Assembly (NCBI GenBank): GCA_012271205.1 | Contig: JAAXGT010000075.1 | Location: 1-62,269 of the forward strand | Direction of reading: 5' to 3' | DNA: 62,269 nucleotides | DNA from: Rhodothermales bacterium | Lineage (GTDB): Bacteria > Bacteroidota > Rhodothermia > Rhodothermales > Bin80 | Shown here: piece by piece, positions 8,722-62,269 of the stretch | Layout: the number at the start of each line of letters is the position of its first letter | Numbering within the stretch: position 1 is the stretch's first letter | Notes under the pieces: generated by a model | Databases searched by the model: none | The model's input: the letters and a program-made list of their open reading frames with translations, nothing else | What the model was told of the DNA's origin: nothing | Made by a program: the position numbers and the translations under genes

Positions 8722-10105
8722 GGCTTTTCCTCCAATCGAGTGGGTTTAGTGGTAGATTGAATAGCACCTGCAATGGGCTGGATGGGATTCTTAGCCGTGT
8801 CCGGTCTGTTTTGGGACATCCTAACGCAGTTGTTCACCGTTGAGCATCCCCTCTACGATAGGTCCGTGCGAGCGAAAGATTTTAGCCGACTCTGAGGTCT
8901 CCCGGCGCCCGGGGAGGTTTCGGAGATAACGCGGGCCCCTAAGGAGCGAGCCGTCCCGGTTTACGGGACCGGCATGGACGGTGCGGCGCGGACCGGTCCA
9001 CCGTGTAGCGTCGTTGGTCCACGCTACGATCACCGCCGTCGGCCATGCGTCACCGGGACCGGTGCGCCTACCGGACCCTGGTCGTGGCGGACTTTCCTCG
9101 GGTAGACGGCCCGACGCCTAGTGGGCACACGGGGCCCCTTCCAAGGGTGGAGGCGAAGTCGCGGTTCCCGATGGAGTTGGAGTCTTTGGTGATGGATGGG
9201 CGGCCGGAGGCGAGTGGGTCGGCGGGGGCCCGTCTGAGGGGGGGAGCTGGACGGCCCTAGACCGGATCAGGCAGCAGGCGGGGCCACGGGGGCTGGCGGG
9301 GAGCCCGGCGCTCACCTTGGCGTAGACGAGACATCGTTCCGTAAATGGCCTGATTAGGTCACCCTTGGGTCCGATGCTCAAGTGGGCCCCGTGCTGCATG
9401 GGGGGTAGACCGGACGAAAGCCGCCCTTGCGCAGGGGTATACCGGTCTCACGTCGGAGCAGCTGGAGAACATCGAGCGGGTTCGCATGGATAGGTGGCCG
9501 GCCTCGATCAACGCCACGCTGGAGCCTGGGCTTGGGGCCCAGCCGAAGGGGGCGTTGGACCGGTTCCACGGGGCTCCATGTCTGAATGCGGCCGTGGACC
9601 AGGGGCGGCGTCCGGAACACCGGGCCTGGATGAAGCCCGGACGGCCCGATCTCAAAGGGACCCGATAGGACGGGTGGACCCACCCGGCCCACCGGCCGAC
9701 GGCCCGTTTCGAGCCGTGGCGTACCCGTACGTTGAAGACGGCCCGAGCGGGGGGCCTCCAAGATCGGGCCCAGCCGTGGGGGTACGATGCGTGCCGCCCC
9801 GGGGCCCGCCAAGACGGGGAGAGCAAGTGGTCCGGGGTGATGCGGGGCCGACTGGAGCCGATCAAAGCGGCGGCCCGGACCATCCAAAGACACCGGGGGG
9901 GTATCCTTAATGCGAGGGCCCTCAAGGGGAGCCAGGGTCCGGCGGAAGGCCTCAACCGCCGGATCCAAACCATCAAAGTGCGTAGTAGCGGCTTTCGTAA
10001 CCAAAGCCGGTTGGCCCACGCCATTTACTTTCACCTTGGAAGTCTCGATCTATACCCCGAAAGCGTCCACAGGTAAACGTACCCACTTAAAACCAACGAA
10101 GAACC
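8722..10105 (+). mobile_element. ISL3-family insertion sequence, degenerate (about 1.38 kb)
   Basis: Left end GGCTTTTCCTCCAATCGAGTGGGT (8722) and right end, read in reverse complement, GGTTCTTCGTTGGTTTTAAGTGGGT (10105) form imperfect inverted repeats; ISL3 transposase remnants lie between them; no target duplication visible. Confidence 0.85.
8866..10076 (+). pseudogene. ISL3 transposase pseudogene (stops, frameshifts, heavy substitution)
   Basis: Fragments match ISL3 motifs: RYDHR..RH(L)D..C, PRV.(C)P, LKTARA(W), RLEP and GILN..S.GPAEGLN..I..IK.RS.GFRN..AIYFHLG.LDLYP; in-frame TGA at 8893. Confidence 0.88.
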
Positions 10106-10629
10106 AAGCAAATGGCAAGTTAGCCCAATTTCCACGAAATTCCGTTTGGCCACGCACGAGCAGTTGATGGAAGGTCGGTCAGGATCATGCTGGTATCGGC
10201 TCCACGTGGCCAGAATCCGATGTCTGTGTGGACGTTTAGATGTAGAACCAACTGCTAGGAAATCCGTGTGGCAAGTGCCGTATACGCTACTCCAGTCGGG
10301 CGCAATACTGTCGGGTTAGGCGGTCCTGCGACGACAGTCAGCATTTCAAATCCGGGGAAACGTGCTTGAGTCGCCGTTTCAAGACGCGGTGTCTTCTGTA
10401 AATTAAGGGAGGCTATCAGATTCCCCTGACCGGAAAGCGAAGAAATGGGGCTCATGCGAGCCACGACTTGCCCGCGACCACGAATACTAATGAGTACGAA
10501 GGCCCGGAGAAAACTCGATACAAGGACGGCTATTCCCATGCACTTTTTCGATTCTTCGCTGCTTGGGTACGTTCCAGTTGTACGCCAACGTCGTAGATTT
10601 GGGTGATTCGTAGAGCACAGCGACGGAAA

Positions 10630-13224
10630 ATGGCCACCTATCCATTCAAGGCGATCGAAAGCAAGTGGCAGACCTACTGGGAATCGCACAAGACCTTCCA
10701 TATACCAGTGGAAGTCGACACTTCCAACCCAAAATTCTACGTGCTCGACATGTTTCCCTATCCCAGTGGATCGGGGCTGCACGTCGGCCATCCTGAAGGA
10801 TATACAGCCAGTGACATCGTAGCCCGCTACAAGCGCATGCGCGGTTTCAATGTGCTGCATCCTATCGGCTGGGACGCATTTGGATTGCCCGCCGAACAGT
10901 ACGCCCTGCGCACAGGCACGCATCCACGCATCACGACCGAGAAGAATATTTCGCGGTTTCGTGCGCAACTGAAATCCCTTGGGTTTTCATACGACTGGGA
11001 TCGCGAAGTGGACACGACCGATCCAGACTATTTCAGGTGGACACAGTGGATCTTCCTACGCCTGTTTGAACGTGGACTGGCCTACGAGGCTGAAGTGCCC
11101 GTCTGGTGGTGTGATGCATTGGGTACTACGCTGGCCAATGAGGAGGTTATCGACGGCAAGAGTGATATCGGAGGCCATCCCTGTGAGCGGCGAAAGCTGC
11201 GCCAGTGGGTTCTCAGGATTACCAGTTACGCGGAGCGTTTGCTGCAAGGGCTGGAGGAAACCGACTGGCCGGCGAGCACCAAGGAAATGCAACGCAATTG
11301 GATCGGGCGCAGCGAAGGCGCAGAAATCGATTTTCCGATCCAAGATCATGCGGACCAAGCCATTCGTGTTTATACGACGCGGCCGGATACGATATTCGGC
11401 GCCACGTATATGGTGCTCGCCCCAGAACACTCGCTGGTTGGAGTGATTACAACACCGGAGGCGCTGGACGGCGTAACAGCGTATCAATCACAGGCGGCGC
11501 GCAAGAGTGATCTCGAGCGCTCGGAACTGCAGAATGAAAAGACCGGTGTTTTCACGGGGGCCTATGCCCAAAATCCCGCAACCGGGAGCCTAATTCCGAT
11601 TTGGGTCGCGGACTACGTATTGGCCACGTACGGAACAGGTGCCATCATGGCGGTACCTGGGCAGGATGAGCGGGACTGGGAATTTGCAGAACAATTCGGC
11701 CTTCCCATACGACGCACGGTACAGCCGCCGGAAGATTTTACGGGGAATGCCTTCACTGGCGACGGACCGGCCATCAACAGCGAGTTTCTGAACGGATTCC
11801 ATGTGGCAGAGGCCAAGTCTTGCATTATCGACTGGCTGGAATCCGAAGGCAAGGGGACACGAAAGATAAACTACAAGCTGCGCGATTGGCTGTTTTCACG
11901 CCAGCGCTACTGGGGGGAGCCCATTCCAATCGTGTTCGAGGATGGAGGCGCGCATGCGCTGCCCGATGATGCCTTGCCCATCACACTGCCGGAATTGGAA
12001 GAATTCAGGCCAAGTGGATCTCCTGAAGGTCCGCTGGCACTGGCAACCGATTGGCTCCACACAATCAACCCGGCCACCGGCCGCCCTGCCAGGCGCGAAA
12101 CCAACACCATGCCTCAGTGGGCCGGCTCTTGCTGGTATTTCCTGCGCTATATCGATCCGCACAATACGGATGTACTAGTCGATCCCGGCCTCGAAAAGTA
12201 CTGGATGCCCGTGGACCTCTACATAGGTGGTGCAGAGCATGCCGTGCTCCATTTGCTGTATGCCCGGTTTTGGCACATGGTGCTCTATGATGCAGGCATT
12301 GTATCCACGTCCGAACCCTTTGCCAAGCTCGTACATCAGGGCATGATCTTGGGCGAGTTGGAATACACGGCTTGGCGCAATGTAAACACTGGAGCGTGGG
12401 TGTGTGCCAGTAAAGTTATGGATGGCCGTGAGCGGGATTCCGGTGATGAGGTTGAGAGTGTGCGTATCGTGGAGGAAGTCGCCGAAAAGGTCAGTGACCA
12501 TTTTGTGTTAAAAGAAGCGCCGGATATTCGGCTGGACGTGCGTGCTTTCAAAATGAGCAAGAGCCGCGGCAATGTCGTCAATCCGGACGAAATAATCGAA
12601 CAGTATGGGGCGGACGCGTTTCGCCTCTACGAATTGTTTATGGGCCCGCTTGAACAGGTCAAGCCATGGAGTACGCGCGGAGTCCAAGGTACTTTCCGCT
12701 TCCTGCGTCGCGTCTGGATGCTCTTAACAGAACGGAAGATTGACGATACTTCACCCTCTGTCGAACAACTGCGCGTGCTGCACAAGACAATAGCACGAGT
12801 GTCTGAGGATATCGAAAGCCTTAGGATGAATACGGCTATCGCAGCGCTGATGGAGTTTGTCAATGCAGCATACAAGTGGTCTAGTGTGCCGCGTGCCATT
12901 GCTAAACCGTTTGTTTTGCTGCTTGCGCCTTTTGCACCGCACATAAGTGAGGAGTTGTGGGAGCAGCTGGGGCATTCGCAGTCTCTGGCCTACGTGCCAT
13001 GGCCGGAATCGCAGGCGCAATACTTGGTGGATGAGTTTGTTAAAGTTCCTGTACAGGTCAATGGGAAAGTGCGGGCAACGATTCAAGTCGCCCCCGATGC
13101 CGACAAGAACCAAGTGCTGGAATTAGCCAAGAGCAACAAGAATGTGCAGCGCTTTTTGAATAATAAGCCACCCCGTCGCGAGATCTATGTCCCCGGCCGG
13201 ATAGTCAATCTGGTAGCCGCATAA
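10630..13224 (+). CDS. leuS: Leucine--tRNA ligase
   Basis: MFPYPSG.GLHVGH (HIGH), editing domain, KMSKS and [19 protein letters not shown] at 10630. Confidence 0.98.
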
Positions 13225-59970: not shown

Positions 59971-61130
59971 ACAGCTCCAAGCCAATGTCTTGGCCTGGCC
60001 TCTGTCGTTTCGGTTGCTCCAAGTATTTCGACATCAGCCAGTCCCACATCGACGGAATAGGAGTGGTAAACCTTCCCGCCCCGTTTGCGGCCAAGCCCCC
60101 GTGTACAGTGCAAGATCGAACAGGTGTTGCGCTTCGGCTTTTTCGTAATGGCTGGTCAGAGACTGCATGATGGTTTCATAGGAGACGCCGCTATCCGGCG
60201 CGCTTTCGACCAGCGGTAAAGTAAGTGCTTGGAGTTGCTTCTCCGAGAAGTCCGCTACTCGCCCCTTATAGTATCTGATCCGACTTTTTCGCCCCTCCTT
60301 GAGTACGTCGCTGAATCCCTTGTCAGTCATTACCCCTGCGTCATCGTACAGCTGTGTCACAGCGGCATGCACATAGGTCATGATGTGCTAGGGCCAGCCG
60401 TAGATTTCACTTGTGATCGAATTGGTCCATGGTGCCGTGTCGCCTTTAGCCCCACCGTCTTGGTCAGCCAGTCCCGGATCACGCCCTGCTCCGCATCCGG
60501 GGACAGCCGCCCCAGTTCCGCAAAGCATCTTTTTAAAACCGAGAGATGCCCAGCTCCCCAAATACCTTCCCTGACGTTCCCAGCCCTCCGGCCAGAAGCA
60601 TGACTCGACGACCCAGCTCGCTGTTGTGAATGCAGTTTAACCCCTCGCGTAAAGCCCTGGTCTCCTGCGCATCTCGCACTTGGCTAACGCCAATTTCCTG
60701 TGCCTCGTCCAGAACGAGGAGCAGTTTTCCCTCCTAGAGCGCTTGAGCAGTTTGACCGTCGTCTGTGAACGGGGCGTCTTGATGGTTTCATAGTGGGCCA
60801 CCTGGGACGACCCGGGCTGGAGCGACTTCTCCTTGGGCTGATATTTCTGGCGCGGTTTGAGCTCGTCCACCAGCGTGTCGGGGTTCCATAGGGTATCCGA
60901 ATTAACCCTTGCGATCTGCCATCCCTCGCTTTCTGTCCGCCTGGGGCACTCTGCAAGCAGGGCCGTCTTGCCCGCCCCCGGCGCCCCCTGCACCAGAAAG
61001 ATGGTGCCTGCACGATAATTTCTCCGCATGCCGGCATTCTTGTGTGAAGTTCGCCAAGATCTGGGTCCGTCCGTGAAAATACTCCGCCGGCCCACGATCG
61101 CGCACCTTACTCCAAAGGCGGTCACATGGC
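59970..61130 (-). pseudogene. P-loop (AAA-like) ATPase pseudogene, multiply frameshifted
   Basis: Pieces stitched across frames: RDRGPAEYFHGR / IFLVQGAPGAGKT (Walker A) / LLLVLDEAQ (Walker B) / LLAGGLG...GISRF / GWP*H (TAG 60388-60390) / PIPSMWDWL; boundaries approximate. Confidence 0.8.
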
Positions 61131-61417
61131 AGTGTTGCAGGTTGGTCACGTCTTTGGACACGGCAGGTGCAGCAGGGTTTCTGCAGCACGCACGGAGATT
61201 GGAATTCCGAGGTGATGTGGGCGTTGATTGAGGCGCTCAGGGCAATGCGTGTGTGGATGTATTAAAGCGGCTGAAGCCGAAACGGCCGGCCCGTAGCAAG
61301 GTGTAGCTGGCGGTGCAGCGAGTGTTGGGGCCGGAGATCGTGCGAAGTCGCTGCGTGTTGAGCAGTAGTGGGAAGCCCGCAGCCAGTACCGCGGACTGGA
61401 ATTGTAGCGTGCTCGCT

Positions 61418-61856
61418 CTTGACTAACTTCCATGATTGCAAGCTCAGAATAGCTCACGATAATCATCGGTTCTTGCACGTAAAGCCCCCAAACCGGGGGT
61501 TGGGGGCCGGAGAGGCTCTAGTCCGTACGGGCAGCAATGGCCTATTTGAGCCGTACGTCCAGAAGGTTGAAAGCTTGGATTGACTTCTTGGTTGGCCGGC
61601 CCAAGATCATGATCTGTTCCTCACCGGTCCGCTTGTAAACCAGTTGTTGTTTGGTCAAAGCAGCCAGATGGTCCATGAGTTCGGCAAAGCTGAGGGGCCG
61701 GTCCCCGTCCGATGGGGTTTGGGTTCACCCCTTCCGCTCTTTAGTGGCAGACCGCCGGGCCAGGGTCACCCCACCTTTCCAAGTCGCTGTCGCTCCGCCC
61801 GGATCCTCCTACGCAGAGAGCATCGGCCCCGTGGCCGTTTCATGTGCCAGAGCACT
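61418..61856 (-). mobile_element. IS1634-like element, 3' remnant (transposase C-terminus 61856-61542 plus probable right end)
   Basis: Reverse strand reads VLWHMKR/..PML.A*EDP..ARRS..K.*T...DG..PLSFAELMDHLAALT...PT....AFNLLDV*, matching IS1634 C-terminal motifs; internal TAG and TGA. Confidence 0.65.
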
Positions 61857-62269
61857 TAGTGTCCTGAACGTAATGGTGGTTATGCAGAAGCGGCGGCCAG
61901 TGCCGGCCGGCTCCGCTCGACTTTCTGGAGCATCTCGTCGGCCGGCTTCGTCCAGACCAGGGGCCGGGGATGCTCGTTGCAGGTTTCGAGGCAGTCTTGG
62001 AAGGGCCGCTCCAGATCCGGCCCGGAAGGGAAGGCGCCACGGCGAAGCCGCTGCTTGGTCCGCGGGCTGAAGCCTCGCTCGACCCGGTTCCGCCCCGACG
62101 CACGAGTCGGCGTAAAGGGCCGGAAGAGGTGCTTCGGCCGCTCGATCCCGTCCAGGACCTTGGGGGGCTTGGGGGTCGCGTAGTGATCCAGGATGAGGGG
62201 GATCTCTGGGCTCTGGGGCCCGCCTTTCTCCACTGGGCGAAGGCATGTCAGCCCCTCCGGGTGGCGAGG
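61857..62269 (-). mobile_element. IS630-family element, 3' part (runs off window), with degenerate transposase 62269-61880
   Basis: LILDHYATPK, FTPTRASGRNRVER.F, RLRRGAF.S..DL and PRP.VWTK.ADE match the IS630 DDE C-terminus; end reads ...GGACAC-TA with TA target at 61857-61858. Confidence 0.88.

Follow-up and report, generated by a model that had tools for sequence, protein, structure and literature searches.

In the genome of a marine bacterium of the Rhodothermales, repeated mobile DNA is hypermutated from CpA to CpC, while single-copy DNA is spared. The pattern is real, large, and specific. We analyzed a window of 62,269 nt, which is the entire contig C179 of the genome assembly G000 (3.34 Mb in 224 contigs, completeness 92%, contamination 0.06%). 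The leucyl-tRNA synthetase encoded in the window is 70–76% identical to Rhodothermales proteins, and the sequencing runs containing DNA of this genome include reef metagenomes. An A>C/T>G bias in insertion sequences of the window had been noticed earlier (the original prediction); the CpA context, the dependence on repeats, the five kinds of affected elements, and the controls within the genome are new.

The IS630 fragment and its neighbors in the window

The window ends inside an IS630 element, the 3′ third of which occupies positions 61857..62269 of the reverse strand, is truncated by the contig end, and is hypermutated by A>C/T>G changes, mainly CpA>CpC. It comprises an open remnant of the transposase frame (61880..62269, reverse strand, 129 codons, stop codon at 61880-61882) and the inner part of the right terminal inverted repeat (61857..61884, reverse strand), the outermost bases of which are present in other copies and missing here. 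CpA/TpG sites close to this right end are mostly unchanged. In a full-length copy on contig C10, the terminal inverted repeat is 34 nt long and 91% complementary. Matches related to the window copy are found on ∼20 other contigs, the genome contains at least 14 close copies, and the IS630 homologues carry the PF13358 domain.

As a reference, we used an intact relative of 364 codons from another genome of the same family (locus L007 of G001), whose transposase scores 247 bits with the IS630 family model NF033545 (cut-off 100). The window copy is 77% identical to it, with 93 substitutions over 410 nt and zero gaps; the frame remnant aligns gaplessly with 54 amino-acid differences, 38 of which contain A>C or T>G. 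The spectrum comprises 28 A>C and 13 T>G, compared to zero C>A and two G>T, so that the predicted bias amounts to 41 changes vs. 2 in the reverse direction. All codon changes that had been named in advance (H>P, N>H, W>G, L>R, S>R, T>P, and I>M) are present in the alignment, and a recount of positions 62041-62100 gave the same 45 G+C among 60. The proposed excess of substitutions over indels holds not only for the window copy, but for 15 alignments of 14 copies taken together (1697 substitutions, 25 gaps). Intact IS630 homologues lack the mutant residues and the spectrum is strongly biased, contrary to both observations that the original prediction had named as evidence against itself. In the window copy alone, 30 of the 51 CpA/TpG sites are changed vs. 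11 of the 106 A/T sites in other contexts (odds ratio 12, P = 3e-10).

The second IS family that was said to carry the same signature 52 kb away and on the opposite strand is an ISL3 relic (8722..10103, forward strand; Pfam DDE_Tnp_ISL3). Aligned to an intact relative from G001, it has 71 A>C, 76 T>G, 6 C>A, and 10 G>T changes (147 vs. 16 reverse), with 93 of 197 CpA/TpG sites changed. The adjoining leucyl-tRNA synthetase gene (10603..13224, forward strand) is an unmutated host flank. Beside the IS630 end lies a remnant of another repeated element (61416..61715, reverse strand), which has a 77% identical copy on contig C28 and presumably resembles the end of a different transposase. An internal control is provided by a fragmented paralogue of a P-loop ATPase (60031..61161, reverse strand) from a family of 13 loci about 72% alike: it shows 23 A>C/T>G vs. 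35 reverse changes and lacks the signature. This fragmented gene adjoins two IS relics.

CpA hypermutation is confined to repeated mobile DNA

To describe the spectrum, we considered 14 IS630 copies, counted only at sites with a supported ancestral base and excluding more distant IS630 matches. In these copies, A>C/T>G changes affect 11–34% of A/T sites, with 670 changes vs. 29 reverse ones, and both strands are mutated in all 14. By the 5′ base, A>C changes were counted in 555 of 934 observations after C, 49 of 331 after T, 46 of 594 after A, and 68 of 1076 after G, the counts being non-independent due to the common ancestry of the copies. In all hit repeats pooled, the changed fractions are 14.5% after C, 5.5% after T, 2.4% after G, and 1.7% after A, and the 3′ neighbor has almost no effect on the A>C rate. 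Outside CpA, A>C is also elevated in the IS630 copies (6–14% vs. about 1% for A>T). Templating by the next base is not a general rule in these copies, as neither A>G after G nor A>T after T is elevated. The C>T rate at CpA (31/884, 3.5%) is the lowest among the four contexts. On the IS630 coding strand, G>A is more frequent than C>T (7.0% vs. 3.8%), and T>C more frequent than A>G (3.3% vs. 1.6%), possibly due to common ancestry.

At the genome level, we calculated CA/(CA+CC) as an index over both strands and considered regions with an index of at most 0.30 as depleted. G000 has 123 depleted regions with the total length of 108 kb. Another copy within the assembly exists for 112 of them, and 11, one being an IS110 relic, are partnerless in this assembly of a 92% complete genome. 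The element kinds identified are IS630, ISL3, IS110, IS4-like elements with a DruA domain, and group II introns. Nearly all annotated depleted regions are mobile elements, and several of the sampled ones have no Pfam match.

In single-copy DNA the index is 0.50, both in 2.27 Mb of long ORFs and in 713 kb outside them; it is 0.33 in repeats whose best partner is 80–95% alike and 0.48 in old paralogues at 60–70%. At four-fold codon sites, A/(A+C) is 0.39 after C vs. 0.32–0.36 after other bases, and A after C and T before G are retained at these sites no less than in a 400-kb sample of G001. Broken genes follow the same division: the index is at least 0.44 in 20 of 21 rows for genes without a close partner and at most 0.38 in 20 of 20 rows for genes with one (four loci listed twice). 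Comparisons of intact and broken host paralogues are symmetric, with A>C/T>G vs. reverse ratios such as 30:26, 29:39, 24:30, and 22:21; one pair of subtilase paralogues is skewed (109:56) but shows no CpA preference. The index is normal (0.43–0.62) in a single-copy IS3-type element that has an open frame of 355 codons, and partnerless broken IS4-like DNA is unhit.

The growth of load with the IS copy number, which the original prediction had proposed as a check, held only in part. The index decreases from 0.41 with one partner to 0.33 with two, but the further classes (0.33, 0.30, and 0.37) are flat. The proposal of a host process acting on both strands rather than a quirk of one element is supported, as at least five unrelated kinds of elements are hit, every one of the 14 IS630 copies is mutated on both strands, and the same element types are clean elsewhere; however, the process is not genome-wide but limited to repeats, and CpA is its preferred context.

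A weaker trace is present in young host-gene duplicates. In four of them, the CpA excess is 25/612 vs. 23/1311 at other sites (P = 0.004), and in the two intact genes beside IS relics the CpA changes are mostly synonymous. Five young pairs have 56 A/C-type vs. 11 other transversions. A 1.4-kb host pair with 92% identity has little CpA bias (8 of 112 differences). These host-gene pairs could be strain alleles.

Element edges, sibling copies, and relatives

The signal stops at element boundaries and rises over the first 100–150 nt: the index is about 0.46 outside the edge and 0.37, 0.34, 0.29, and 0.28 in successive 50-nt steps inward. In the IS630 copies, the changed share of CpA sites is 50–88% in the interior, but only 37% over the first 60 nt and 0–35% over the last 130 nt.

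The load varies among sibling copies. In a second IS630 group it ranges from 0 of 19 up to 18 of 41 CpA sites, in IS4-like siblings 23–55% of CpA sites are changed, and an intact IS4-like copy on contig C42 is unhit although its siblings are 72–80% alike. This copy (G000:C42:627-2927, L250) encodes an intact protein of 766 amino acids, a DruA domain fused to an IS4-type transposase, and related elements occur in 22 of 38 genomes of the family. The overlap of changed sites among IS4-like copies is just 1.0–2.0 times that expected by chance, and transitions overlap more in most pairs; some change sets are nested, with 29 of 32 changes of the copy on C212 also present in that on C93. An ISL3 family of four copies carries as much load as the large IS630 family, and so do partnerless relics. 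Relics of group II introns are also hit, and such introns presumably could not have moved after this damage. The mutation has occurred in place, in this lineage.

Relatives are clean. When compared to L007, G001's own IS630 copies have 0–2 A>C and 1–3 T>G changes per alignment. In metagenomes, at most 17% of CpA/TpG sites are changed in the 19 of 21 IS630 loci that aligned. For the IS4-like element in 21 other family genomes (30 alignments), 6–14% of CpA sites and 7–17% of sites elsewhere are changed, with no preference. Hence, no mutated relative was found among 21 family genomes and 19 metagenome loci. IS630 matches were also found in 4 of 13 genomes reached through loci, with no CpA preference in the four loci that were aligned, and a phylum-wide sample of 401 yielded 3 matches.

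Several features of the relatives were noted in passing. An IS4-like copy in G008 (contig C257, L262) has 26 A>C/T>G vs. 8 reverse changes without CpA preference. G001, G002, G005, and G009 carry a heavy load of group II introns (26–34 reverse-transcriptase matches each), and G000 has only damaged relics. In G002, the C-terminal portion of a C5 DNA methylase has about 40 matches scattered over the chromosome; most lie in frames of 82 codons, and they resemble a repeated element.

Possible mechanisms and known systems

We consider it probable, with moderate confidence, that a host process uses homology to recognize duplicated DNA and mutates this DNA in place, converting A to C mostly after C. 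Recognition by homology, possibly through pairing or recombination between copies, is suggested by the need for a partner, the spared edges, and the clean flanks. Against it stand the 11 of 123 partnerless regions, the unhit copy on C42, the load that is flat beyond two partners, and the little-biased host pair with 92% identity.

As for the chemistry, we tentatively propose misinsertion of G opposite A during repair synthesis, fixed by MutY. Repair synthesis in the paired region would place G opposite A, with dGTP templated by the next C or with oxidized dGTP; the intact MutY would then excise the A, fixing C:G. Fixation of A:T>C:G by the MutY of E. coli is described in PMC4041421. With repeated rounds, CpA sites would saturate, and transposases and intron ribozymes would be killed, an outcome similar to that of fungal repeat-induced point mutation (RIP). 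This scheme is weak: no error-prone polymerase was found, there is no general next-base rule, and the signature is missing from relatives that share the repair genes and have many IS copies, so that MutY alone cannot explain it.

The repair gene set of G000 is similar to that of its relatives. MutY is intact and fused to a MutT-like Nudix domain (G000:C215:8005-9099, L210), a fusion also seen in G001; this domain scores 96.5 bits (cut-off 97.9) with an intact Nudix box, and the Nudix set equals that of relatives. Judging from these sequences, loss of MutT function is not supported. The genome has a single DnaE, and MutL is present. MutM was not found in any of the five family genomes searched, and Y-family polymerase, trimeric dUTPase, Piwi, and archaeo-eukaryotic primase were not found in G000 and four relatives. 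The X-family palm domain was found in 0 of 21 genomes, a search with a weak control (0 of 14 over the cut-off). No MUG/TDG-type glycosylase was found, the only two UDG hits being common to relatives, and a motif screen of G000 yielded no deaminase motif. The adenine-methylase motif screen gave seven ORFs, of which one is BREX-type, one Hma-type, one RsmD-like, and four are false hits. The sole C5 methylase found lies beside vsr in an MZA-like defense locus (G000:C130:5690-11733). The responsible enzyme was thus not found among the repair, polymerase, and modification families searched. G000 also has a BREX-type locus (C43) and a type I CRISPR-Cas locus (C38); despite the latter, a crude finder revealed no CRISPR array. 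Reverse-transcriptase hits comprise three broken relics and one protein of 1248 amino acids beside housekeeping genes (G000:C90:2-3745, L213); G004 and G008 have open frames of comparable length.

The pattern resembles fungal RIP, which, as the relevant portion of PMC12543289 describes it, changes the C of CpA to T in repeats on both strands. The shared features are that repeats are hit and single-copy DNA is spared (with exceptions in both directions here), that both strands and CpA/TpG sites are involved, that the effect depends on the identity and length of the partner, and that copies decay to 80–94% identity (PMC12543289). By contrast, RIP produces C>T (PMC12543289), while here the change is A>C and C>T at CpA has the lowest rate of the contexts; moreover, the bacterial host has no premeiotic stage, no RID-like gene was identified in it, and the one C5 methylase found sits with vsr. 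That we observe a bacterial counterpart of RIP, a dedicated homology-sensing defense that would rewrite CpA to CpC by an undescribed adenine-to-cytosine chemistry and so destroy transposons and group II introns, is a speculative possibility.

The main rival to homology-directed mutation, which we find unlikely, is biased gene conversion. With an ordinary or mildly raised A>C rate, MutY would turn heteroduplex A:G into C:G, and C alleles would sweep through the families without any added mutagenesis. Conversion needs repeats and spares edges; MutY is present, about half of the informative site pairs among IS630 copies are incompatible with a single tree, and nested change sets are seen in IS4-like copies. 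On the other hand, long identical tracts are scarce, as 7 of 56 IS630 copy pairs have a longer identical run than shuffled ones (P < 0.05), the longest being 74 nt, with short-read assembly limiting the detection of tracts. Transitions shared by at least two IS630 copies, at 15 sites vs. about 11 expected on a star tree, roughly fit independent hits. The fully loaded four-copy ISL3 family and partnerless relics also argue against conversion, as do the CpA preference, which it does not give by itself, and G001, which has MutY and many copies and lacks the signature. Recurrent mutation accounts for most of the homoplasy between copies.

Still less likely, in our opinion, is a mark on mobile DNA placed independently of homology, either by a base-modifying or base-excising enzyme that is guided or recruited to it or by the transcription or transposition state of the element, with the mark at CpA/TpG resolved as A>C. 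This would accommodate the 11 partnerless hit regions, the unhit sibling on C42, and the fact that annotated hit regions are nearly all mobile elements, and it has precedents. Human TDG excises specifically at TpG/CpA in the repair reaction covered by PMC4041421; the dinucleotide context of this aberrant repair is shared, but the enzyme is human, the outcome is CpG (PMC4041421), and no MUG/TDG homologue was found here. Targeting without homology is exemplified by the alga Bigelowiella natans, whose TpA hypermutation of integrated viral DNA is, as summarized in 10.64898/2026.01.13.699255, also local, dinucleotide-specific, A:T-erasing, and aimed at invading DNA, but consists of transitions at TpA, occurs in a eukaryote, and targets foreign rather than repeated DNA. 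The unhit single-copy IS3-type element and the partnerless broken IS4-like DNA speak against such a mark, as does the weak signature in host duplicates; in addition, no Piwi or TDG/MUG homologue was found in the genome, and the adenine methylases found in it belong to the BREX- and Hma-type loci.

It is very improbable that the elements acquired their mutations elsewhere (in a donor of the mutT type, a plasmid, or a phage) and were already damaged when they arrived or spread, mobilized in trans via intact ends. The ends are indeed spared, 39 of the 82 well-covered CpA sites are changed in at least 70% of IS630 copies, and the IS630 group from contigs C10, C101, C179, C126, and C200 is 91–94% alike. 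But the damage extends to five unrelated kinds of elements, among them introns, whose mobility requires the RNA fold; sibling loads differ down to zero, and no mutated relative is present among the 21 family genomes or the 19 metagenome loci. Further, the mutT context that 10.1101/2022.10.21.513255 reports in its pertinent part is set by a 3′ template A (5′-AA), while here the 3′ neighbor hardly matters.

A genome-wide mutator of the mutT type, visible only where selection is absent, is largely refuted and hardly credible. A:T>C:G is the textbook mutT class, and the host-duplicate pairs have an excess of A/C-type transversions, but the signature is missing from four-fold sites, from single-copy DNA outside genes, and from broken paralogues of host genes, the Nudix set is that of relatives, and the MutT-like domain on MutY is intact. 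The mutT/8-oxo-dGTP mutator of E. coli, in the portion of 10.1101/2022.10.21.513255 concerned with it, similarly produces A:T>C:G on both strands with few indels, yet it acts genome-wide and at 5′-AA, compared to the confinement to repeats and the 5′-CA context here. Loss of mutT was rejected due to this confinement, the differing context, and the unchanged Nudix set.

Diversity-generating retroelements cause adenine-specific hypermutation of one strand, from A to any base, in a short target beside a reverse transcriptase. Here, both strands are affected, the change is A>C only, and it extends over 108 kb of unrelated repeats; such an element is ruled out by the two-strand A>C pattern, the reverse-transcriptase hits being the broken relics and the 1248-amino-acid protein.

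Illumina sequencing commonly miscalls A>C and T>G, and in a short-read metagenome assembly single copies may be mosaics. For the signature itself, a sequencing or assembly artifact is rejected, since the mutated sequences are reproduced in three samples: contigs from these samples, coming from two studies, show zero differences from hit regions over 217–440 nt, although one of the three may be the source of the assembly, and the host flanks are error-free. The window alleles were recovered at most listed sites, with invariant host flanks. The 20 differences listed between samples are all located within mobile elements, while about 5 kb of host DNA has none; ten are A/C-type, six of these at CpA/TpG. 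This hints at recent activity, although the contigs may derive from other copies. The TG>GG context is also the opposite of the GGGT>GGGG hotspot at G runs described in the part of 10.1101/2022.10.28.514265 considered here. These bacterial T>G hotspots share the influence of a neighboring G, but there a G run lies 5′ of the T and the effect is genome-wide (10.1101/2022.10.28.514265), while here one G lies 3′ of the T and only repeats are affected.

Repeat-directed mutagenesis is known in fungi (PMC12543289) and hypermutation of invading DNA in an alga (10.64898/2026.01.13.699255), as far as the relevant parts of these sources go. No bacterial case of repeat-directed mutagenesis was found in the literature searched, in which subscription journals were thinly covered. 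If homology-directed mutation is true, a prokaryote permanently disabling every multicopy element would represent a new layer of bacterial genome defense; it would also explain why some host-associated genomes contain GC-rich relics of elements, and would imply that A>C transversion can be targeted in vivo. If the process is a by-product of repair, CA/TG depletion confined to repeats is still a clean, measurable signature that can be screened across all genomes, so as to trace the responsible gene by its presence and absence.
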